64,000 bases of DNA, from assembly GCA_965215265.1 (NCBI GenBank), contig OZ244048.1, positions 4,320,001 through 4,384,000 on the forward strand, written 5' to 3'. Under the pieces are notes generated by a model. It was not told the origin of the DNA and did no database searches. It saw only the letters and a list, made by a program, of their open reading frames with translations. This stretch comes from Candidatus Poribacteria bacterium (GTDB taxonomy: Bacteria; Poribacteria; WGA-4E; WGA-3G). Made by a program: the position numbers and the translations under genes. Below, piece after piece: positions 10,769 to 24,908 of this stretch; positions within the stretch are counted from its first letter, which is position 1, and each line of letters begins with the position of its first letter.

Positions 10769-11260
10769 ATGCATGACGATACAGGAACGCTACGAAGCGA
10801 TGAAGAATTGATTCAACAACTGCAAGCTGGAGATACGAACGTTCTCGGTGAACTGATGAACTGTTACAATCCACAGATATGGGGCATGATTCTCAGCCAA
10901 TCGCGGCGATACAACCGCGAGGATGCAGAAGAGATTCTCCAAAATACGTGGATTGCGGTGTGGAAATACATCGGCAGCTTGCGTGAAGTGAGCAACTTCA
11001 GACCGTGGTTGTAGAAAATTGCCGCCAACGAGTGTACGCGGTATTACAAGACTGCATACCACTCCAAAAGATTGCGGCAGCGTCACACGAATGGACAAGT
11101 CGCGGCAGTGTTTGAGGTAGTCCAAGAGATGGCATCTATTTACGTAGAGGGTGGTTGAGTTGTGAACACAAGGATTTACGGCAACTGAGACGGCAAAGGC
11201 ACGGTGAAGTCTTGGCGTGCTAAGATACGGAAGGAGTGCCGCGCACGTTTGGGTGTGTCG
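10769..11260 (+). pseudogene. ECF sigma factor pseudogene
   Basis: SDEELIQQLQAGD, DAEEILQNTWIAVW, FRPWL*KIAANEC (in-frame TAG at 11012-11014); degraded region-4-like GTVKSWRAKIR near 11200. Confidence 0.75.
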
Positions 11261-11344
11261 CGTCCCTGAAAAACCAGAAATGCTGCGATTCAACCTATTT
11301 ATTGTTGTTTACTTTTATTTTTCTTGACAACTGTTTAAGGAGGA

Positions 11345-11837
11345 ATGTATAATGTTTTCACGGTTTTAATTGTTTTGCTAATAGCGTCTCTACTTCTTGG
11401 GGTAGCTGCTCCTACACAACCTGCAGATGCACAAGCACAAGGATGGGGCGAGGCCGGCAAGTGGCTATGGAGAGGCATAAAGTGGATTGGTGCTGTCATC
11501 GCGGCTAAGGAAATTGAAGATGCTTGGGATGGTGACGATGGCTGTTACGATTCTTGTAGTTGCTGGTTATGCGTCAGATGCTTTTATTTCGGAGACGAGT
11601 GACGATAGCTGTTACGATTCTTGTAGTTGTAGTCCGTCTAGCCCCTGTCATTCAGGATGTGATTGTGAGGAGTCTTATTCCTACACTTGTAATGATTGCG
11701 GTTATAACTGGTCAGGAACGGACTACGATGAATATATGGAGGTTTCTGGTAATCATTCTTGTACTGAAAGTGATTATTCAGATTGGTGCACTTTCTGCGA
11801 GGAAGAGCATTATAACTGTGGTGGGTATGGATGGTGA
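11345..11837 (+). pseudogene. Secreted Cys-rich acidic small protein, frameshifted within a 67-bp-period duplication
   Basis: AAGGAGG RBS, signal peptide, Trp-rich amphipathic segment, Cys-rich C-terminus in a second frame (11487..11837 ORF); removing 67 bp (or 1 bp) joins the two frames. Confidence 0.65.
11532..11629. repeat. 31-bp direct repeat (1 mismatch) flanking a 36-bp unique segment
   Basis: GTGACGAT(G/A)GCTGTTACGATTCTTGTAGTTG at 11532-11562 and 11599-11629. Confidence 0.85.
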
Positions 11838-11840
11838 TCT

Positions 11841-12137
11841 ATGAGATGGTCTTTAACTCTGATTCTTGCTATAGTCTTTGTAATTGGTTTTCTTTTAAGC
11901 CAGTTCACCGATCGTTTTTTTGACAAGTCTATGAGATGGTCTTCAAGATCAAGCCTGATTCTGGCTATACTCTATGTAATTGGTTTTCTTTTAGTCCGGT
12001 TCACCGATCTTTCTTTGTATTGGTTTATTCTACTTGGACTCGTTTGTGCCGGAATAGATATACTGCTAGGTTGGAAACAGGAACACCGGAAGAAGCCCTT
12101 TGACAAGATTCAGCGTGGAGACTTGGATCGTCTCTAA
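11841..12137 (+). CDS. Small membrane protein with an internal duplication
   Basis: MRWS...LILAI.(F/Y)VIGFLL..FTD occurs twice; about three hydrophobic segments; starts 3 bp after the Cys-rich gene. Confidence 0.6.
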   Translation: MRWSLTLILAIVFVIGFLLSQFTDRFFDKSMRWSSRSSLILAILYVIGFLLVRFTDLSLYWFILLGLVCAGIDILLGWKQEHRKKPFDKIQRGDLDRL

Positions 12138-12143
12138 TCTATA

Positions 12144-12175
12144 GTAGGGGACAGGTTCCAAAAACCTGTCCCTAC
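12144..12175. repeat. GTAG-type REP-like hairpin / possible terminator
   Basis: GTAGGGGACAGGTT-CCAAA-AACCTGTCCCTAC. Confidence 0.7.
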
Positions 12176-12414
12176 CGGCACGCTCACATGTCCGCCAATT
12201 GACAAGCCTGTCTATAACTGATAACACGGAGATTTTATTATGTTTACACGCAAACAATTTGTCGCATTAAGTTGTGGTTTCCTACTTCTCGGGAGTGTTG
12301 CACTCTATTTATATCAACAGAATACTCCGGTCCCCGAACCTATTAAGGTTTAAAAAGTCACAAAGCCAACTCAAAGGGCAGCAACCTCTGTGAGAGCACC
12401 CATCCCTGAACACA

Positions 12415-12747
12415 ATGCAGTATCGGAAGACATCAGTGGATTTCCATATCCGCCCCTTTTGGAGTTCTTTTATGAATCGGGTTCCTATTGTGTATTTTGT
12501 AGGTTTTTTTGCGGGTGTGTTTGGTGCTATTACTCGTCAACTTACCAATCACTGGTCCGCTTTTCTTATTTGGGTTTTCCTGGGTTTAGTGATATCGTAT
12601 CTGTTTAATAAGGATGTATTCAGGCTACTCCCACATAACCCTAAACCTGCCCCTAGACCTGCCCGAGGGGCTTATGCGGAATATCTGGCACGCAAACAGG
12701 AGAAGAAAAAGTTGAAAGCGTTGAACCGGCAGCAGAAGAAAAGATGA
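12415..12747 (+). CDS. Small membrane protein with a basic C-terminal tail
   Basis: Two hydrophobic helices followed by a Lys/Arg-rich tail; the start may be the ATG at 12472 after GGAG. Confidence 0.5.
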   Translation: MQYRKTSVDFHIRPFWSSFMNRVPIVYFVGFFAGVFGAITRQLTNHWSAFLIWVFLGLVISYLFNKDVFRLLPHNPKPAPRPARGAYAEYLARKQEKKKLKALNRQQKKR

Positions 12748-12925
12748 AGACGGGTTTGCAAAATATCGGTGACATCTTCGGAGAACCGAGCGCCCTATTC
12801 ATGCGTCTGACATCGGCTTCTTGGTAGCGTCAGCATCTTAACTTTATCAAATTTCCAAGTGAGGAGTTCGCTACCCAAGAGTTGCAGCATCTCTTTGATA
12901 TACCCCAAAAGTAAAGAGATACCTA

Positions 12926-13153
12926 TTTTTGTATACTAGAGCCCCACAACGGCTGATGCATTGTTAATCACTGTGTACATCTCGTCAGAGCCTTTCTAGG
13001 TTATGAATCATAGCATAGAAACGGTAGAGAAACAGCCTGGTTCGTCCAACTTAAGTCTCTTTCTAGGTTATGAATCATAGCATAGAAACCCTCCTACGAG
13101 ATTTATGCAAGGGTTATCAAAACATCAATCAGTATTGGGCTTCAGTATACAAA
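12926..13153. repeat. Family-1 element carrying a repeat-spacer-repeat insertion in its centre
   Basis: Arms TTTTTGTATACTAGAGCCCC...GTACATCTCGTCAGAG and CTCCTACGAGATTTA...GGGCTTCAGTATACAAA; centre duplicated. Confidence 0.85.
12992..13089 (+). CRISPR. Minimal CRISPR-like unit: two identical 31-bp repeats and one 36-bp spacer (orphan, no cas genes in window)
   Basis: CTTTCTAGGTTATGAATCATAGCATAGAAAC at 12992-13022 and 13059-13089; spacer GGTAGAGAAACAGCCTGGTTCGTCCAACTTAAGTCT; repeat ends in GAAAC. Confidence 0.5.
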
Positions 13154-13767
13154 CAGTCATCACTGTACTACAATTATAAAGATTTTTATATGAAAACTCT
13201 TCAGAATCAGGCGTTTATTAGCACTCCAATCCTAAATTTCATGCTACATCCGTTCCTTATAGAGGTTTCTACCACCACCAAAACGCCCACCCCCACTTTT
13301 TGCGCGCAGGAGGAAGCCTCCGCCACTGCTAAATGTGCCAAAAATACAGTAATCCGGCGAGGATACCTAAAATCATGAGTTTCCACCATTCAGAATTCAT
13401 TTTGTTCGCCTTTATAGTAGAATAGAAACCTGCCAGTAACTGGTCGTGCACCAAGTCCTAATCGATCCACTTTTTACTTATTCTTTCGACCTCTTTTGTG
13501 AATTTTACCATCAATATAATACATGGATACGCTCTAATGCTGCAGTGCGATGCCAACTTCCCGCGCGTTGCCTCGGGAGAAATTTAAAGACTATACATAC
13601 CGAAGGCCGCTCCTTATCTTTCATCCCATTAGCAACCCGGCTATTAGTAGAAATAGGCATGCACCCAGGGGCGATGTAAAGGAACTGCAGATGTGTTTCA
13701 TCATTTTCATCGCTGTATTGTAAGGGCGGATGGTTTCATCCGCCCACATGAACTTATAGAAAAGAAA

Positions 13768-14661
13768 TTAGGCGTGCCGGGGCCCCATCGCATAAGCCGG
13801 CTTTTCACCGAATTGCTCAATGAGCCAGCCGCGTAACGGGACATCCTCTTCTGTGGGTACATAACGGCCGTTGTTTCTCACGGCAGCACCGAGCAGCTGC
13901 CTCCGAATCGCGTCGCAACGTTCATAAAGCGGTTCAACCGTCATTTCGTCTTTCGGCCGGATCCATCGATATCCGTAGCCGTAAAAGAGTGCCTTTCGAG
14001 TTAACTGGGAGTGGTTGGGGCTGCGCGAGTGCCAGAGTCGTCTGTCAAACAGGACGGCGGTGCCGGGTTCTACACAGACCGGCATTGCATCTTCAGGGAC
14101 AGCCGTGGCGGTTCCCTCGCGTGGGTCCCGGCTAATCTCGGACTCCGGTACTGGCATATCCGAGAGGTGGCTCCCAGGGCGTATATAGAAATTGCCACGC
14201 CCGGGTTCGGAGACATCTGTGAGGAAATATGCTACCTTCAAGGAGATACGCGGGCGCGGATTGGTTTCCAGCTCAATGTTAAGGCGGCCGCTGTCTTGGT
14301 GCCATTCTAACCATCCTTCACTCTCTTTGGCATCTGCGGCTGCGGGCGGTTTGACATGCATATGCGCGTGGTAGAGATAGATATTCCATCCCAAAATCCC
14401 CCAGACTTTGGGCAACGTTGTCGGCAGGTCTACCAGATCTAGAAGCGCGTCGTCTGCTCCTAAAAAATCTGACCAGCCCCAAGGGTTACCGGGCTTGGCT
14501 CTGCCTGTGGCGATTGCTTTATGGTGAAGGGTATCCACGGCTCGCGTTAGCGCTTCTACCTTTTCTGGGGATAGCGCGTTCGGCACGTACAGGTAACCTT
14601 GTTCTTCAAAATGGGTCTGTTCTTCTTCTGTGAGTAAGTGCTCAAGGCATTCTCCGTTCAT
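13768..14661 (-). CDS. Phytanoyl-CoA dioxygenase family (PhyH) Fe(II)/2OG enzyme
   Basis: FEEQGYL, WHQD, PGSH, GTAVLFDRRLWH facial-triad motifs. Confidence 0.9.
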   Translation of the reverse strand: MNGECLEHLLTEEEQTHFEEQGYLYVPNALSPEKVEALTRAVDTLHHKAIATGRAKPGNPWGWSDFLGADDALLDLVDLPTTLPKVWGILGWNIYLYHAHMHVKPPAAADAKESEGWLEWHQDSGRLNIELETNPRPRISLKVAYFLTDVSEPGRGNFYIRPGSHLSDMPVPESEISRDPREGTATAVPEDAMPVCVEPGTAVLFDRRLWHSRSPNHSQLTRKALFYGYGYRWIRPKDEMTVEPLYERCDAIRRQLLGAAVRNNGRYVPTEEDVPLRGWLIEQFGEKPAYAMGPRHA

Positions 14662-14720
14662 GGTAAATTCTCCTGAGTCGCGGTGTGCGTATGCACGCCG
14701 CGCTGAAAAGATATTGTGTG

Positions 14721-15584
14721 TTATCGCACAAAACGTGCGAGAAATTCACGAGAGCGGCGGAGTCCATCTGACTCTGATTCCCACGTTCGCCAGTAGCGAT
14801 AATCTTCGAGTTCAACACTGACGATGCCATCGAATTCCTCGTCCTCTAAGCGTTGCACGACTTTCAGCCAGTCAACAACGCCATCACCGGGGATGGTATA
14901 GCGCCACCATTCTTCACCGAATCCGCGTGCGCTGCCGAAGCTTGGGCCCAAATTGCCGTGGAGATAGAGTGCTTCTTCGTCGAAGACGGTGTCCTTTCCA
15001 TGGACGTGTTTCACATAAGGTGCAAATTCGTTAAGGGTGCGTAGGTAATCAATCCCGATTCGGACTAGATGAGACGGGTCGTAGTTGAGCCCCAATCCTG
15101 GTGAGGTGCATTCAGCGAACATCGCGCGCCACATTTCGGGTGTGCAGCCGAGTGCCGGATAGGTGGGAGGAGGGCCGGGCCAACCTTCCACAGCGATAGT
15201 GACACCGTTTTCGGCAGCGAACTCAGCGATCGGCGGGATAGTTTCCTTCCAAATATCAAAATTTTTGGCACGACCGAGGCTGGCATCCTCCGGTACAAAA
15301 ACGCAAAACATAATCCGAACGTCGTTTTCTGCAGCAGCTTGGATGGCGTTTTTGGCAGCAGCAGCACCGGATCTCTGTTTAGACTTTTTAACGCTGAGGA
15401 GGTCACTAACCCCTGGTAAATCCGCTGTACCGATGACGAGCCCTGCATCTCTCGCGGTTTTGACAATTTCCGGAGTGACTGCTCCAATATCAACGGCTTC
15501 AAATCCGTTATCCGTGCACCACTGGCAGAAATCGGCAAAGGGTAATTGGCGAGCTGTACCGGGGATGCGTAATCCAATTTTCAT
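14721..15584 (-). CDS. Sugar phosphate isomerase/epimerase (xylose isomerase-like TIM barrel)
   Basis: IAVE, GLNYDPSH, HVHGKD, PGDGVVDW, SVELED. Confidence 0.88.
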   Translation of the reverse strand: MKIGLRIPGTARQLPFADFCQWCTDNGFEAVDIGAVTPEIVKTARDAGLVIGTADLPGVSDLLSVKKSKQRSGAAAAKNAIQAAAENDVRIMFCVFVPEDASLGRAKNFDIWKETIPPIAEFAAENGVTIAVEGWPGPPPTYPALGCTPEMWRAMFAECTSPGLGLNYDPSHLVRIGIDYLRTLNEFAPYVKHVHGKDTVFDEEALYLHGNLGPSFGSARGFGEEWWRYTIPGDGVVDWLKVVQRLEDEEFDGIVSVELEDYRYWRTWESESDGLRRSREFLARFVR

Positions 15585-15596
15585 AATTTTTCCTTT

Positions 15597-16817
15597 CTAA
15601 AATCCCATCAACCCGCAGCAGCGGCGGCAGACCGGCATTGGCCCATCATTACTAACGGACTGTCGGAATTTAATTGCCTTCTGGTTATTCCACATATCCA
15701 GAACCTTATCAGTTTTGATATTGCCGATGGTGTAGTCGTGGTAGTCGCGACAGAGACTCACGTCCCCGTTACTGTCAATCTCCATCGTCATGTAGATGCT
15801 GACACATTGGTTGTACCCAAAAGTCTGCTTATGGTCAGTATAGTATCGCTGGATTTCCCCGCGCGAGTTTAACCTCGGCATCATAATAGGCGGGCACCGT
15901 CGCTGCTTTTCGGCGAGGTTTTCCATCTCCTTAAACCTATCCAGAATGACCCCGTGGTCAAAGTCTTTCCAGGTGCCAATCCATCCATAGTGCGTTTGCG
16001 GTTTGAATCCGAACCGGCTTTCAAAATCCTCTGTGTGTTCTTGTGCAGACTGGGAGTCAATCCACCATGTCAAATAAAAGATCTGCGCGTCGGCATATTG
16101 ACTCGTGAACTTGTAGAGGTCAACCACGACATCAATGTTGTACATCGTAACGCAGCTGAGCGGTATGATGTATGGAAAAGCGAGGTTACGGCGTTGCTTC
16201 TCTGCACTCAGGGTTTCCAATGCAGCTTTGACATCCTTAAAGTTGTCGTACTTAGGCGACACGCCTGGACGTTGCGTGTTATGAATTTCCTCGTTAGGTC
16301 CGTCAACACTGAGGTAAATAATCTTGCAGGTTTCCAAGATATCGTCAGCGCGTTTGGCAATGTTGGTAGCGTTGCTAACAAGAGAGATGGGCATACCCTT
16401 CTCTTTGATATAGTGCATTAATTCAATCAGGCCGGGGTACAGCATCGGTTCGCCGCCCCAGATGTACCAGACAGGTGCCCATCCAGCATCCACAATCTGA
16501 TCGACGAGGTGCTTATAGGTTTCGACGGGGACTTCGCGCTGTTTGAGTTCTTTAAGCGAATGCCCCAACAGGTACCCGTTATCTCCCCATTGTCCGCAGG
16601 AATGGCAACGTAAATTACACATATCTGTAATGCGGAGGCTTACCAGTTGAAGTGGGTCGCCTTTGCCATGCTTTGCACGTAGCGGGTGCCGCAAGTTGAA
16701 ACTCTCTTTTGCCAATTGGTATCGAATCAATTTACGCGAGGTGTCCCAGTCCTCCGATATAGCAGTCGCAAGCTGGTTGACGAGAAACCGGGACGAAATT
16801 CGACTTCGTAGTGCCAT
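15597..16817 (-). CDS. Radical SAM protein with C-terminal SPASM/twitch domain
   Basis: CNLRCHSC, WGGEP, C...GDVSLC...IGNI...CRRCC. Confidence 0.9.
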   Translation of the reverse strand: MALRSRISSRFLVNQLATAISEDWDTSRKLIRYQLAKESFNLRHPLRAKHGKGDPLQLVSLRITDMCNLRCHSCGQWGDNGYLLGHSLKELKQREVPVETYKHLVDQIVDAGWAPVWYIWGGEPMLYPGLIELMHYIKEKGMPISLVSNATNIAKRADDILETCKIIYLSVDGPNEEIHNTQRPGVSPKYDNFKDVKAALETLSAEKQRRNLAFPYIIPLSCVTMYNIDVVVDLYKFTSQYADAQIFYLTWWIDSQSAQEHTEDFESRFGFKPQTHYGWIGTWKDFDHGVILDRFKEMENLAEKQRRCPPIMMPRLNSRGEIQRYYTDHKQTFGYNQCVSIYMTMEIDSNGDVSLCRDYHDYTIGNIKTDKVLDMWNNQKAIKFRQSVSNDGPMPVCRRCCGLMGF

Positions 16818-16845
16818 CTATTCTCCTTTCTTTTCTATTGTGCGG

Positions 16846-17259
16846 CTAAGCATTGTCCTCAGGCTTAATAAGTATCAGGGCTGCCGAGTTCATGCAGTAG
16901 CGTTTACCCGTAGGTGAGGGACCGTCGTTAAAGACGTGCCCGAGGTGTGCATCGCAGCGACTACAGAGGACTTCGGTGCGCGGCATGAAAAAGAGGCTTA
17001 AGTCTCTTTTGGTTTCAATGCTTTCGGGCGAAACGGCTTCCCAAAAGCTGGGCCAGCCGGTTCCCGAATCGTACTTTGTATCTGAAGTAAAGAGCGGATT
17101 TCCACAACAAATGCAGTGGTAAGTCCCGTTTTCTTTACAATTATGGTACTTGCCTGTGAAGGCGCGTTCTGTCCCTTTCTTACGGGTTACTTTGTATTCC
17201 TCAGAAGTGAGTTGTTGTTGCCATTCCTCATCGGATTTAATGATTTTTTCTGCTACCAT
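16846..17259 (-). CDS. msrB: Peptide-methionine (R)-S-oxide reductase
   Basis: GTERAFTG, CICC, KYDSGTGWPSF, HLGHVFNDGP, RYCMNS; start taken at MVAEK after GAGGAG. Confidence 0.95.
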   Translation of the reverse strand: MVAEKIIKSDEEWQQQLTSEEYKVTRKKGTERAFTGKYHNCKENGTYHCICCGNPLFTSDTKYDSGTGWPSFWEAVSPESIETKRDLSLFFMPRTEVLCSRCDAHLGHVFNDGPSPTGKRYCMNSAALILIKPEDNA

Positions 17260-17383
17260 TTTTCGCTCCTCTGACGAACCTGTCGCGTTCGGCCACCGGC
17301 TCCTCATTTTATCAATGCGAATACTATACCAAATTTTGCTAAAAAAGACAAGTGTGATTTTAAGTTGACATAATCTATATTAG

Positions 17384-17756
17384 TTTCGTCTACTGCAGCA
17401 CAACGAAGGCAGTTGTAATGCTAAACCCTAGCACAAATCTCGTCGGAGGGTTCCGATGCTACGAATCTAAACAGAAAAAACCTCCGACGAGATTTACATC
17501 GAAGTCAACAAAAACATAAACTTTTATCGTACTGAAATATACGAAAACACAAATCTCGTTCTTTCGTCTATAGGAGCCCAATAAAGGCTGCTGCTTTTTC
17601 GTATACAGGAGCCCAATGCCAGTTGCCGCTATATTAAATCCTTTACAAATCTCGCCGGAGCCTTCTTATGCTATGAATCTAAACACCAGGCGGCTCCGAC
17701 GAGATTTACACAGTGATTAACAATACATCAGCCTTTATCGGGCTGCAGTAGACGAA
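17384..17756. repeat. Cluster of family-1 elements (full copies 17384-17547 and 17595-17756 plus partial arms between)
   Basis: Repeated TTTCGT(C/A)TA ends, AAATCTCG(T/C)CGGAG and CTCCGACGAGATTT inner motifs, GAATC centres. Confidence 0.85.
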
Positions 17757-18190
17757 CATTCTTGTTCACTCCTTCAGGATGCCTTGTTCTGTTAATCGTG
17801 AAATCAGTGCCGCTTGTGTCCCTGTCCCTTTCGTTGAATTGCAAGCAGCACAAAGCAGTTGCAGGTTCTCTATATGGTTAGTGCCCCCTTTGCTTTGGGG
17901 TGTGATATAGTCTACCGTCAAGTTTCGATAATGGAACGGATATTGACATCCATTGCATTTGCCTTGCTGCCTACCAAATAACTCGGGTTTGTGCGTTTGG
18001 TATCTGGGTAAATGCCGCTGCATCTCTATCTCCTCAGCGGTGTTCGTCCGTTCCGGTGCATCTTTGCGAACAATCACATCTGTCAACGGATTGAATAAAT
18101 TAGCGGCTTGGTTGACCTCATCCGACAGTCGTAGTTTTGTGATGTCCTCCGCATCGGGCGATATGTCTATGCCAACCCATTTCCGATGTA

Positions 18191-18352
18191 TTTGTATATT
18201 TCAGTACATTAACGCCTGATGCTTTGTCAATCACTGTATAAATCTCGCCAGAGGTTATCTATGCTATGATTCAAAACATCGGAACCCTCCGACGAGATTT
18301 GAAAAGGATTTAACATTGCAGCAGCCTTTGTGGTGCTGCAGTATACGAAAAA
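18191..18352. mobile_element. Family-1 element inserted in the MTase-HNH gene, replacing the SAM-binding motif I
   Basis: Sits between ...SSNEGDMV and HRKWVGID; the expected LDPFCG...AAE stretch (present in the paralog at 35817-37406) is absent. Confidence 0.8.
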
Positions 18353-19100
18353 CCATATCGCCTTCATTTGAGGACGCTTTGATGATGCGTTCTAAGAGCG
18401 CGAGGGGCTTCTGCGTCGGATAGCCAGTGTCTTCTTTGCCCTTTACAGGCGGCGTGTCAAGAAACAAGTCCCCGGCGACAACCCCCGGCATCGCAGATAA
18501 ATACTTCTTCCATTGCGGTCTGCCGATTTTACCTTTGGGCCAGTGCAGCAGTCCCGCGGCATCAAGAACTTCACATTTTGCCAGTGGGTCGAGCGCTTCA
18601 TAATTATCTGGCAACAGTGTCTGTGCAGAAGCCGGAAATTTCTTGCGAGCCGGGGGTGCCCATGCCCGACCCGGCGGCGGTTCAATGCCTTTCAAGGGCA
18701 GATACGCTTTGCTGCTGCCTGCTTTTCCACCCGAGAGATCCGCTGTGCCGTATTTACCATGTTTGTCCCGACCGCGAAACGACTTCTGTATATATTCATC
18801 GGCATAAGGAGAATATTGTTGATTCCAAGTTGCCCCCTTGGACTTGATATAGTAGAGAATTCGGTCGGTGTTTACCGCGTAGCGTTTCGCCAACGATTTC
18901 GTCGAGGTCCGCTTCCAAATCACCTCATTCCGAAAGTGATTACTTCCGAACAGCGAGTCCATCACGGCTTTTAGATAATGGCTGGCGGTCGCATCGCAGT
19001 GCAGATATATGCTACCTGTCGGCTTCAAAATACGGTGCATCTCAAACAATCTCACCGCCATGGCTGTCAGGTATATCTTCATCGACGTGTCAAATACGTT

Positions 19101-19261
19101 TTTTGTATACTGGAGCCCAATAAAGGCTGCTGCAATGGACACCCTAGCACAAAACTCGTCGGAGGGTTCTGATGTTTTGATTCATAGCATAGAAAACCTC
19201 CGACGAGATTTACACACGTATTATCACGACATAGGCGGTGATGGTACGGAGATATACGAAA
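19101..19261. mobile_element. Family-1 element, clean 161-bp insertion in the MTase-HNH gene
   Basis: Removing it gives in-frame YQMIQASD-NVFDTSMKIYL; no target duplication visible. Confidence 0.85.
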
Positions 19262-19545
19262 ATCGGATGCCTGAATCATCTGATACAGTTCCTCGTGTTG
19301 GGCAGCGATCTGTCCGTGCCATTCGTCTTTGATGTCCTCGTCTGTCCAGATGTCTTTGAATGCCGCGCCCTCTGCTGGAGAGCCTATCGGTGCTTTCCAC
19401 TGTTTGCCCGATTTAAACGGCGGATCCAGATAAATCAGGTCTATCGTGCCTGAATCCATACCTCGCATAATGTCAAGATTGTCAGCAATAAAAAGCGTTC
19501 TATTCTCAAAGTTCATCGTGTACTCTGTCTAAAATAATACGGTTT

Positions 19546-20745
19546 CTATTTTTTCTTAACCGTCCCGAGAACTCGACACGTCGTTGCAGAAAGAATTTCA
19601 TATTCCACATCGCCCCACACAATCTTGCGTTGGAAGACGGCATACACTGCGTTAATCCCAGCGAGAAAAATTGAAAATGGGGTAGCATAAGAAGTGATGC
19701 GAATGGTATCCTGCATCTTCGGCATTTGGCGTAGCCAGTGCGGCAAATTCAAGCAGAAAATGCGGTAGCTGAATGCCTCCAGAAAAGGGACAAACACAAG
19801 GGGCAGAAGCCCTTTCTGAGAGAATAGAAACGGAAGCGCTCCGAAAACCAGTAGGGCCTTCGGGAGAAATATAACCAGACTCCCCAGCCATTGGATCCAA
19901 AGCCCCATGTGAAACGTCATAATCATCTGTCGGTTTGTGAATTCAACAATCTGGTTCCAACTCCGGTTTGCCGTGCGGGTGACGGCAACACAGTCTGGGA
20001 CAAAATGAACTTTCAGCTTAACGTCTCTGACGGCCCGGGTCGTGTTGAGATCCTCAATCGTTGCGTGCTTCCACCGTTTCAGAAGTTGAGATTTCTCTAG
20101 GAATTCACGACGGAAGGCGTTAGAGCCGCCCCATACCATTGAAAACCGGTGATCCCCTTGTAAACCCATCTGGAAATTTACCCAGATGGCTTCAACAAGG
20201 GAGGCGCAGTTCCACGTCTGTGGGAAATAGAAGCGCCCGCCCACGGTTGCCCCGATTTTTGTGTCCTGCAGCGGTGTGACGAGCAGCGTTAGCCAATCTT
20301 CGCGTATAGCTACATCTGCGTCAACAAAGGCGATGACTTCAACATCATCCGATAAGTTTTCTATGACCGTCAGGAGGTTCTGCACCTTTTGCGACCTGCG
20401 GAGTTTATTGTCAATAATGTTTGGTGCCAACACGACGTGAATATTCGGTGAGGTTTCCGCGAGTTTTTGCAGATGTGGATAGGAGACATCGTACCCAGTG
20501 TGCTCTTTTTGGTGTGTGACAAAGAAAATGTCGTATTCACCCGCGTAATCTTGCTGTAGGAGCCCCTTGACATGTTCGGCGGTGTTATCGTCCCATCCGT
20601 AGTGGGGTGCGATAATAGCCGCTTTTGGCGTATAAACCGGCCAGACCTTTTTTCGTTCACGACGCGAATACACAAACGAGTGGCTAAGCATTAACAGTTG
20701 GATAAGGAGAAAAAAATAAGTGGTTGCAATAATGTATATATGCAT
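19546..20745 (-). CDS. GT2/GT21-like membrane glycosyltransferase (ceramide glucosyltransferase/HpnI-like)
   Basis: LLQQDY, KVQNL, FVDAD, WGGS, IEDL, RQ motif, N- and C-terminal TM segments. Confidence 0.8.
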   Translation of the reverse strand: MHIYIIATTYFFLLIQLLMLSHSFVYSRRERKKVWPVYTPKAAIIAPHYGWDDNTAEHVKGLLQQDYAGEYDIFFVTHQKEHTGYDVSYPHLQKLAETSPNIHVVLAPNIIDNKLRRSQKVQNLLTVIENLSDDVEVIAFVDADVAIREDWLTLLVTPLQDTKIGATVGGRFYFPQTWNCASLVEAIWVNFQMGLQGDHRFSMVWGGSNAFRREFLEKSQLLKRWKHATIEDLNTTRAVRDVKLKVHFVPDCVAVTRTANRSWNQIVEFTNRQMIMTFHMGLWIQWLGSLVIFLPKALLVFGALPFLFSQKGLLPLVFVPFLEAFSYRIFCLNLPHWLRQMPKMQDTIRITSYATPFSIFLAGINAVYAVFQRKIVWGDVEYEILSATTCRVLGTVKKK

Positions 20746-23252: not shown

Positions 23253-24908
23253 TCAGCTGCGGCGTTGCCACCAAACAACAAGTCCTGCAATAAATATGAT
23301 TAAGGGAATCAAAAATACCGCGAGTATCTGCACCAAAACGGCCTCTTGTGCCAGCATTGGGCGGAGTGCCAGTTTTTGAAAATCAATTGGACTGATAGCA
23401 ATGAGGTCTTCCTCTAATGTAAGCCAATTGATGACTGCTAGGAACAGAGTGTGGTTTTCAGGTCTTAGAATGCCGATTTGAGGGTAATTTGAAGCAAAGT
23501 CTGAGTCTCCAAAGACAACGATTCGCGGAAGACGATCTTTACCCCAATTCGGATGCCAATCTTTTTGCTCAGCCCCCCCCGCTTTTTTCTCTTCAACGGC
23601 GGCTGCAATCGACACCGGCGGGGGCGTATCGATGCCGGGGTTGTAAGATGGATTTGTGACGACGTTTCTATCAAATTCGGCTTCACCCCAACTGACTCCT
23701 GTTTCTCCAACTGTTTTTGCCAAGGATTTAACACTGAGCCTTACTGGAATGTCTTCGATAGGCGTAACAGAACGTGTACCGCGAAACGGAATCAGTGTGC
23801 CTTGGAGCGCTCGTGTAATTTCATGTTGTTCAAAGTCGGGCAAGATCATAGTAGCACCATAGATGGAAAGGCGGGCCTGGTCTATCACCAAGTCATTTCC
23901 TACCTCAATGCCCCACTTCTGCATGAATTGAATGAGTTCTCTATTTGATGATGTTGCTGGTTCAAAAAGCAAAAGTAATTTTCCATCTCGGGCGAGGTAT
24001 TCAGTGAGCAGGTTTATTTCAACTTGCGTTAAAGCGGTTTTTGGTGCTGCAATGACAAGTACCGCGCAATCTGCAGGGATGCTCGGCTGCAAAAGTGAAG
24101 AGAAGGATAAAACAGCATAATTCTGATTTTCTAACGCCTCTTTCGCGCCACTATACCCTAACGGTGTGAGGTCGTCAATACTCCGTTCTTCATGGCCAGT
24201 GAGGAAATAGATTTTTTTCGTTTCATTCCGGATGAGTTTAAGCAGCGCATTTGTGAATTTCTGTTCGTCTACGGAGGTTACCTTTTCAATTCGGTTCGTT
24301 CCAATGTTTGTTTTTGCAGGTATAGAGGCATTGTTGACAGTTTGCAGGGTTGCAACACTTTCAAAAACGATTGTTCCGTCTCTAACATCATATTTATCAG
24401 CAAGTAGGTTGTCAATATAGGGATTTACAAACGAAACGGTTAGGAATTCGTTCTCGCGTTCATAGAGTGTCAACATGTCTTTGGCGCGTTCAAATTCGAG
24501 TGGACTGTTGGCACTGCCAGTGAAAAATGCTGTTGCATGAATAGGACTGTTGAGAGATTTAAGGACGTTTTTCGTCTGTTCTGACAGCGTATGAAGTTGA
24601 TGCTGGGTTAAATCTTTCCTTTTATCAAACCTTTGTGCGACAATCACATTGATGAAAATGGCGATACCGATAACACCGATGATACTTATCGCGACATTTG
24701 CACCGTAGCGTGCTTGGCGACTGACAAAGAAGCTAGCAAACTCGTTAAATCGTAAGCGTGCAAAAATCGCTAGGGCAGTTAGACAAATGAGAAGGCAGAG
24801 CCAAGCAGCAAGCGTCGCACCGAGTAAAAAACTCGCAATCGCAGTGAAACCGAAAATTAAAGCGATAAGCCCAAGGAGCGGGCCTGCCATGTTCTTACTT
24901 TTTGGCAT
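23253..24908 (-). CDS. GldG-family ABC-type transport auxiliary component
   Basis: RYGAN, DLT...HTLSEQT, IYFLTGHEE, LVIAAP, RIVVFGDSDF, C-terminal TM; the ORF-track start at 24977 lies inside a repeat. Confidence 0.85.
   Translation of the reverse strand: MPKSKNMAGPLLGLIALIFGFTAIASFLLGATLAAWLCLLICLTALAIFARLRFNEFASFFVSRQARYGANVAISIIGVIGIAIFINVIVAQRFDKRKDLTQHQLHTLSEQTKNVLKSLNSPIHATAFFTGSANSPLEFERAKDMLTLYERENEFLTVSFVNPYIDNLLADKYDVRDGTIVFESVATLQTVNNASIPAKTNIGTNRIEKVTSVDEQKFTNALLKLIRNETKKIYFLTGHEERSIDDLTPLGYSGAKEALENQNYAVLSFSSLLQPSIPADCAVLVIAAPKTALTQVEINLLTEYLARDGKLLLLFEPATSSNRELIQFMQKWGIEVGNDLVIDQARLSIYGATMILPDFEQHEITRALQGTLIPFRGTRSVTPIEDIPVRLSVKSLAKTVGETGVSWGEAEFDRNVVTNPSYNPGIDTPPPVSIAAAVEEKKAGGAEQKDWHPNWGKDRLPRIVVFGDSDFASNYPQIGILRPENHTLFLAVINWLTLEEDLIAISPIDFQKLALRPMLAQEAVLVQILAVFLIPLIIFIAGLVVWWQRRS

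Follow-up and report, generated by a model that had tools for sequence, protein, structure and literature searches.

The centre of a hairpin element in a Poribacteria genome raises the question of how a 31-bp sequence came to stand twice, in exact copies, around a short segment of DNA that is absent from the consensus of the element family. A first reading of the locus, made from the sequence alone, had taken this arrangement for a CRISPR-style spacer integration. The window analysed here (genome G000, contig C1, positions 4320001-4384000; 64,000 nt) is one part of a single-contig 4.83-Mb genome. Coordinates below are those of the genome unless they are marked as window positions, and the principal features are collected in the table.

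The 31-mer CTTTCTAGGTTATGAATCATAGCATAGAAAC has exactly two copies in the 4.83-Mb genome, both in the focal unit and separated by 36 nt, and no third copy was found in the genome even when 6 mismatches were allowed. The resulting repeat-insert-repeat occupies the middle of an inverted-repeat element of 226 bp, whose 94-nt arms are 72% complementary; a half-copy of the left arm, 99% identical, is located at 268198-268287. The boundaries of the unit are ambiguous, because the insert matches its genomic source (see below) as C + 36 + C, 38 nt in all. Given these two shared Cs at the insert edges, the duplication and the insert can be read as 31+36, 30+37 or 29+38, and the 30+37 reading fits the unit as well as the 31/36 split does. 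A formal alternative description of the same structure is a 67-bp unit present in 1.46 copies.

Coordinates of the focal mini-array, of related features and of the host CRISPR arrays
Feature	Position	Strand	Details
Hairpin (MITE-like) element copy bearing the insertion	window 12928..13153	.	inverted arms 12928-13021 / 13060-13153
Element left arm	window 12928..12991	.	ends ...ATCTCGTCAGAGC at the left integration junction
Pseudo-repeat copy 1 (palindromic apex of the element)	window 12992..13022	+	exact 31-mer, two genome copies only
Spacer-like insert	window 13023..13058	+	exact copy of genome 3743468-3743503, sense strand of the 1117-aa ORF
Pseudo-repeat copy 2	window 13059..13089	+	exact duplicate of copy 1
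Element right arm	window 13090..13153	.	begins CCTCCTACGAGAT at the right integration junction
Second mini-array, same geometry	window 11532..11629	+	36-nt insert between 31-nt copies (1 mismatch); shifts the frame of a small Cys-rich ORF
Comparison copy of the hairpin family	window 19101..19261	.	single centre
CR1	genome 524241-535579		170 repeats, 30 nt (CTTTTAATCGCACCAATTTGGAATCGAAAC); spacers 33-40 nt, plus one of 73
CR2	genome 622351-624111		27 repeats, 30 nt; spacers 35-39 nt
CR3	genome 1463250-1468071		65 repeats, 36 nt; spacers 35-43 nt
Mini-array with self-derived insert	genome 3283305		37/37 match, source 3581264-3581300
Mini-array with self-derived insert	genome 4190754		35/35 match
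Mini-array with self-derived insert	genome 4458115		36 nt, 1 mismatch
Mini-array with self-derived insert	genome 2606130		35 nt, 2 mismatches
Mini-array with self-derived insert	genome 2364330		multi-copy source
One of five CR4 spacers, self-derived			leader-oriented case

Sequencing runs from other studies hold the locus. Run X5 shares 0.94 of the words sampled from the stretch, and run X9 contains a 97-nt contig identical to window 12992-13088, so that we regard the focal structure as real. In run X8, one 112-nt contig joins window 12991 to 13059, skipping 67 nt; only 29 letters lie on one side, 31 letters fit both, and an assembly at k=31 could collapse an exact 31-nt repeat. A 52-nt query for the empty site, comprising the second repeat and the start of the right arm, had no match in metagenome contigs, and relatives share only the gene downstream of the focal locus, at 73-83% identity. 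No clean empty-site allele of the locus was obtained from metagenome contigs, other runs or relatives at ~80% identity.

The insert could be traced to its origin. Together with one C on each side, it is identical at 38 of 38 positions to genome 3743467-3743504, on the same strand, inside an ORF of 1117 aa (L008:6722-10075) without a Pfam family; the source gene lies ~590 kb from the insert, and the source segment is internal to the gene. The corresponding segment of a 1153-aa paralogue of this ORF differs at 6 positions, and in relatives the segment is 85-100% identical. Because the paralogue and the relatives hold the segment, it is ancestral in the gene, which makes the gene the source and the element the recipient.

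The recipient belongs to a family of 449 merged BLAST intervals that cover ~47 kb, or ~1% of the genome. The stem pattern recovers 132 complete centres, of which 125 measure 18-50 nt and only 3 contain a repeat-insert-repeat, and the family consensus centre lacks the 36-nt insert. What the sequence-only reading had called a loop is itself palindromic and prolongs the hairpin to a 3-nt tip, so that this label required refinement; this palindromic apex spans 30-31 bp, and on either strand its border reads GGAG[G/C] followed by [G/C]TTTC. The claim of that reading that a 31-bp sequence is exactly duplicated around 36 bp held, as did its claim that other full copies are single-looped, exemplified by the comparison copy in the table. 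The possibility that the 36-mer is a remnant of an insertion sequence or of adjacent sequence, which would have refuted the proposal, is excluded by its exact identity with a distant coding segment. The existence of other copies with duplicated centres was also confirmed: besides the focal unit, units lie in the centres at 2322504 and 926414, and a fourth, at 4311497 and counted with them, adjoins the right arm; those at 555347 and 1680511 are insertions in arms, at one homologous site.

The family resembles MITE-like palindromic repeats in being short (~160-170 bp), non-coding and multi-copy, with long inverted arms and no ORF. It differs from them in that its arms also form tandem multimers, and the likeness is drawn without evidence of target-site duplications or of a transposase. 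These multimers are arranged head-to-tail in 3-4 copies with a period of ~61 nt (247114-247279, 4232168-4232376, 1494067-1494238 and 2721093-2721268), an arrangement uncommon among MITEs. Some hairpin copies (1177867, 1854137, 4536602 and 2179770) contain in their centres a second, different small palindromic repeat, with the core AGGTATTCTT..TCTCTCC..GGAGAGA. The hairpin family was not seen by stem pattern in 111 relatives, and a long-centred search of these gave only chance matches to coding sequences; as far as the stem-pattern search goes, the element is likely to be lineage-specific. No Rfam family was found at the element, the only match in window 11000-20000 being sub-threshold and a chance one.

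The host encodes enzymes that could account for such a structure. Directly upstream of CR1 lies a type I-B locus (cas8b1, cas7, cas5b, cas3, cas4, cas1b and cas2), a block that is itself preceded by cas6 (506998) and csm genes. The CR3 module is I-G-like, with a Cas4/Cas1g fusion, and contains the second cas1-cas2 pair (1468327-1470222). The two cas1 and two cas2 genes of the genome are all in CRISPR loci, and the genome-wide search, in which only these two cas1 genes were found, revealed no solo Cas1 or casposon. The CR1 spacers (n=169) are 36 nt long in 62 cases, 37 nt in 39 and 38 nt in 33, with a mode of 36. The geometry of the focal unit, which is 3.8 Mb from the cas genes, fits the I-B arrays (30-31 duplication, 36-37 insert) and not CR3. 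Nevertheless, the focal unit fails the criteria of a canonical array, given that its repeat is only 17/30 like that of CR1 and that no leader adjoins it; by BLAST, leader copies are present only at 524150, 4319778, 4751219 and 24063, none of them beside the focal unit.

Several observations on the canonical repeats and their surroundings are recorded here. Two more small CR1-type arrays, at 23910-24111 and 4751058-4751285, contain 3 repeats each, some of them degenerate, and each has its own leader copy. The CR1 repeat is widespread in the bacterial family, with array matches in 47 of 60 genomes (family-level genomes G001-G127). At the CR2 end, a ~40-nt multi-copy sequence (CAGTTTTGAAGCG...CACTTAGA) adjoins a 365-aa ORF (624623-624666). 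More copies of this sequence are found at 2944880, 972728, 2119330, 71918 and 3265863, including one between 27-nt duplicates at 3265837, and it may conceivably represent the end of an IS-type element.

The focal unit is not the only structure of its kind in the genome. Scanning for exact direct repeats 30-250 nt apart, we kept only pairs with unlike flanks, thereby excluding tandem repeats and arrays; this filter left 83 of the 615 exact repeat pairs. There were 20 isolated exact duplicates of 28-32 nt, and in 14 of them the two copies are separated by 34-39 nt (36 nt in 6 cases and 37 nt in 5); an exact 31-nt duplicate with a period of 67 nt is therefore not a matter of chance. In other duplicate-length classes, the gaps are spread thinly and evenly over 5-207 nt, and the scan found no isolated duplicates of 33-37 nt, the size of the CR3 repeat, with 35-43-nt gaps anywhere in the genome. 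Adding 926414, which the flank filter had dropped, to the 14 units from the scan gives 15 exact mini-arrays (hereafter, minis). Their periods are 65 (1), 66 (5), 67 (8) and 68 (1), as a 30-bp stagger combined with spacers of 35-38 bp would produce; the apparent duplicates of 31-32 nt are expected, because one flanking base can be identical by chance. A mismatch-tolerant scan yielded 8 more, diverged candidates, including the second mini-array in the window (table), for a total of ~23, and the inserts of different minis are unrelated to one another.

Two candidates were dropped from this set: 2179770, which belongs to another small repeat family, and 3265837, where the geometry does not fit, the duplicate being 27 nt long and the insert, which derives from a multi-copy sequence, 40-44 nt. 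As a separate observation, 3283207-3283402 contains two independent minis side by side, 2 nt apart and with different pseudo-repeats, the second of which has the 37/37 self-derived insert.

For the 15 exact minis, both junctions were read on the strand that would be attacked, yielding 30 junctions. The consensus has AG[G/C] immediately before the junction and GTTT immediately after it: position -3 is A in 19 cases, position -2 is G in 17, position -1 is G or C in 25 and position +1 is G in 18, followed by T at +2, +3 and +4 in 17, 16 and 14 cases, respectively. Counting G and C together, 22 of the 30 junctions have one of them as first base. Several of the sites are homologous copies of one element, and these are not independent in the motif and similarity counts. 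In CR1, the canonical junctions are TAGC followed by CTTTT at one repeat end and a junction followed by GTTTCG at the other; the CR2 equivalents are TAGC followed by GTTGC and a junction followed by GTTTAC. The focal junctions, GAGC followed by CTTTC on the top strand and GGAGG followed by GTTTC on the bottom strand, resemble the CR1 repeat ends and leader-repeat junction. Across its length, the focal apex matches the CR1 repeat at 17 of 30 positions, concentrated at the terminal CTTT... and ...GAAAC (p ~0.01 versus random 30-mers), and the 8 nt that close the pseudo-repeat, ATAGAAAC, agree with the final 8 of the CR1 repeat, ATCGAAAC, at all positions but one. More generally, similarity to some canonical repeat is significant at p < 0.05 for 7 of the 15 pseudo-repeats and absent at that level from the other 8.

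The hairpin family accounts for 4 to 6 of the 15 exact minis, or 4 of 15 by BLAST annotation (binomial 1e-5), and the palindromic apex is very likely an integration hot spot. It makes a good target because it is of repeat length, is two-fold symmetric and has borders like the canonical repeat ends and leader-repeat junction.

Comparison with uninterrupted sites shows that the inserts of minis are secondary to the sites they occupy. At window 11532, in-script removal of 67 nt (repeat plus spacer) fuses two broken frames into an ORF of ~142 aa that encodes a Cys-rich protein with a signal peptide. Mini 4190754 amounts to 66 extra nt when set against the paralogous repeat units beside it in the same gene, which have one copy of the motif, and at the 459481 locus a same-genus relative has one repeat-like copy. 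At locus 1590856, where a gene disruption is predicted, relatives match only the first 250 nt. The minis inside long open frames have a period of 66 and, for that reason, stay in frame.

A further array, located just outside the window, bears on how the integrase chooses its sites. CR4 (4319418-4319861, minus strand; L020 and L022) lies 140-583 nt before the window start. Its leader duplicates that of CR1 with 97.6% identity over 85 nt and is abutted by six exact copies of the 29-nt CCTTCAAAGCCCCTCGCTTGGCAGGTTAG with spacers of 36-38 nt; beyond these repeats are a 225-aa gene without a family and then three true CR1 repeats (4318526-4318691). The 29-mer is single-copy in 3 of 111 family genomes, with 2-3 mismatches, and in two of those three relatives it immediately precedes the start codon of the orthologous gene. 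From its single-copy state in relatives it follows that an unrelated 5' UTR became a repeat under the action of the leader. CR4 thus provides independent evidence of a leader-and-ruler mode of action by the integrase, one able to establish arrays on foreign sequence.

Minis 4311497, 4331532 (window 11532) and 4332992 (window 12992, the focal unit) are all within 13.2 kb of the CR4 leader, 3 seen versus 0.13 expected for 23 by hand arithmetic, a comparison made post hoc. Off-target integration might be locally biased toward the vicinity of a leader, a possibility that shares this post hoc character.

The minis and CR4 differ from the canonical arrays in the origin of their inserts. Self-derived inserts were identified in 6 of 23 minis and 1 of 5 CR4 spacers, whereas none of the 259 canonical spacers (CR1, CR2 and CR3) matches the rest of the genome over its full length; their best match outside the arrays is 32 of 37 nt. 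At the source, CC is present at -3,-2 in 4 of 6 self-derived cases (CCC, CCA, CCA and CCG, the last being the leader-oriented CR4 case). CCN is a PAM of some type I-B systems. The focal source is flanked by CTC (TCG or ATC on the other side) and one other self-derived source by ATC, so that the PAM test failed for the focal event, which shows CTC and not CCN. The PAM of canonical CR1 and CR2 remains undetermined, because no outside protospacer was found: the CR1 array had no match in phage and plasmid collections, the spacer common to CR1 and CR2 had none in viral contigs, and comparison of the CR1 array with 60 family genomes returned only repeat-to-repeat matches, which swamped the listing and left no protospacer readable. 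The self-derived inserts might reflect naive, partly PAM-guided sampling of self DNA, a tentative inference. In this view, their excess at minis would be expected, since self spacers would survive only where they are unused. In the region 3910388-3910706, hairpins (CCTGCTGCAGCACACACTGCAGCAGG) between small genes partly match CR1 and CR2 spacers; possibly, they belong to a resident relative of a mobile element that those spacers target.

Taken with the inferred activity and identity of the enzyme, these results make it very likely (probability about 0.88) that the focal structure is a natural off-target ('neo-CRISPR') spacer integration by the host type I-B Cas4-Cas1b-Cas2. The proposed course of events begins with a 36-38-bp chromosomal gene fragment (3743467-3743504), which would have been captured as a prespacer. 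Two strand transfers ~30 bp apart, at the borders of the apex, would then have joined this fragment to the element; the anatomy of this step is shown and the enzyme is inferred. Finally, gap filling would have duplicated the apex to give repeat-spacer-repeat, of which the duplication itself is shown.

The CRISPR-style integration put forward in the sequence-only reading is thus supported, with cas1 and cas2 present as two modules, and the comparison on which it depended, that of host repeat and spacer lengths, was passed (I-B repeats of 30 nt, spacers of 33-40 nt, mode 36). Its suggestion that the loop mimics the host repeat held in part, resting on the 17/30 match together with the right length and two-fold symmetry. 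Its idea that the family could seed mini-arrays across the genome is supported by their recurrence, and the accompanying idea that the elements carry guides is without RNA evidence. The look for a PAM that it proposed showed CTC at the focal source and not CCN.

The product of the focal integration is most likely a neutral scar that does not work as a guide, a judgement made without RNA data. It rests on the lack of a leader, on a pseudo-repeat unlike the true repeat and on a self-target flanked by CTC versus mostly CCN elsewhere. Promoter and terminator scans at the unit gave no more than shuffles give, and no promoter-like site was seen upstream. Processing of the unit is nonetheless not excluded and remains a possibility, because its last 8 nt differ from the 5' handle region of CR1 at only one base.

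A bolder extension of this reading is conceivable, in which the lineage-specific palindromic element spreads ready-made proto-repeats, and transposition together with CRISPR adaptation makes new arrays, some of them transcribed and processed into guides against host genes, for regulation, or into new immune loci. In its favour, every apex presents the I-B integrase with a two-fold-symmetric target of 30 bp, and the six-repeat CR4 on a 5' UTR shows that such births can grow. We consider this extension unlikely, with expression and guide function both hypothetical.

The attribution to the I-B enzyme can also be questioned, in that another integrase, including the I-G-like module in place of I-B, or an unknown tiny mobile insert that generates ~30-bp duplications might have produced the unit. 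A second cas1-cas2 pair does exist, and the enzyme lacks experimental identification. Against the I-G-like module, its array has 36-nt repeats and 35-43-nt spacers, and there are no isolated duplicates of 33-37 nt with such gaps. Against a tiny mobile insert, the inserts are mutually unrelated and so are not one mobile sequence. Against any other integrase, both cas1 genes of the genome are in CRISPR loci, with neither a solo Cas1 nor a casposon in addition. This explanation is thus very unlikely.

Another view takes the focal unit for a selected working guide, transcribed and processed, which regulates or polices the 1117-aa gene or its paralogue. The single difference between ATAGAAAC and ATCGAAAC and the perfect match to the target speak for it. 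However, the unit has no leader and no promoter-like site beyond what shuffles give, most minis are at unrelated places, including genes that they break, as accidents would be, and a perfect self-target in the presence of an active I-B effector would be lethal unless unused. We regard this interpretation as very improbable.

Slippage, that is, local tandem duplication of a native 67-bp unit without any insertion, is all but excluded. The structure is formally writable in this way, as 1.46 copies of such a unit, but the 36-mer interrupts an element architecture that is single-centred in 125 of 132 copies, it exactly copies a distant coding segment, and slippage leaves unexplained the geometry shared by 14 of 20 isolated duplicates (28-32-nt repeat, 34-39-nt gap). 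An assembly artefact can be practically ruled out as well: short exact repeats can mis-assemble, but the genome is one 4.83-Mb contig, and runs X5 (0.94 of sampled words) and X9 (97-nt contig) hold the stretch.

The mechanism favoured here, off-target integration by Cas1-Cas2, is itself already known, from over-expression in E. coli and from experiments with Pyrococcus furiosus proteins in vitro. In E. coli, neo-CRISPR loci arise from non-canonical integration (Nivala, Shipman and Church 2018, Nat Microbiol, as described in the citing works 10.1101/148544, PMC7054753 and PMC6546382). There, as inferred for the focal locus, Cas1-Cas2 places DNA of spacer size at a non-CRISPR site, a segment of repeat size is duplicated in the process, and the resulting unit could seed an array. 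The E. coli events, however, come from over-expressed type I-E Cas1-Cas2 in the laboratory, whereas those described here are natural, with the I-B geometry of 30/36-37; moreover, ~23 events are fixed in one genome, many with self-derived inserts, a mobile palindrome serves as a hot spot, and one case is a leader-driven array of six repeats. For P. furiosus Cas1-Cas2 in vitro, full-site integration was observed at non-CRISPR sites with G/C 30 bp apart and a few repeat-like positions (PMC6698737). The minis are alike in the G/C that comes first at 22 of 30 junctions and in duplications of ~30 bp. They are unlike the P. furiosus products, which were obtained on plasmids in vitro, in being genomic and in showing a flanking AG[G/C] preference that resembles the leader end TAGC. 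Cas1-Cas2 also integrates next to cruciform-forming inverted repeats in vitro.

Evidence for such events in nature has been limited. One of the citing preprints reports only 'circumstantial evidence' of neo-CRISPR in two other species (10.1101/148544), and within the literature text we searched, natural off-target integration is described on circumstantial evidence only. Off-target acquisition has been proposed for isolated arrays, as one of three listed origins (Shmakov et al. 2020, CRISPR J, per 10.64898/2026.04.27.721218). The isolated or orphan arrays of Shmakov et al. 2020 reportedly lie far from cas genes and start at repeat-like sequences. Units of the focal type are likewise far from cas genes, but those arrays were found by array finders, whereas the minis are mostly single-spacer units with non-canonical 'repeats' that such tools would discard. 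Mini-arrays in cas loci, which are repeat-like and give regulatory cr-like RNAs (10.1101/2023.03.03.530964), have a similar layout of two repeat-like units around one spacer. They differ from the focal unit in lying within cas loci, in consisting of true repeat-like sequences and in matching cas promoters partially; the focal unit is 3.8 Mb from cas genes, has a duplicate that is not a repeat and matches a non-cas gene perfectly. Within the literature text searched, what appears to be new, in our estimation likely so, is the natural scale of ~23 events per genome, the type I-B site logo, the self-spacer excess, the gene disruptions, the mobile-palindrome hot spot and the six-repeat array derived from a 5' UTR with a single-copy precursor in relatives.

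Collectively, the ~23 fixed events with their sharp 30/36-37 signature constitute a natural integration-site logo for the type I-B integrase. The self-spacer excess at harmless sites exposes a self-sampling that selection removes from real arrays, and the genes that were frameshifted or lengthened by 22 codons represent a visible cost of adaptation. CR4 amounts to a natural leader-plus-ruler experiment, the single-copy precursor of which is kept in relatives. If the bolder reading were true, unlikely as we hold it to be, the genome would be a natural record of CRISPR repeats diversifying de novo. The link with a mobile palindrome suggests a way in which repeats arise and disperse, and so bears on the question of CRISPR repeat diversity, and the focal insertion records how new CRISPR arrays can start.
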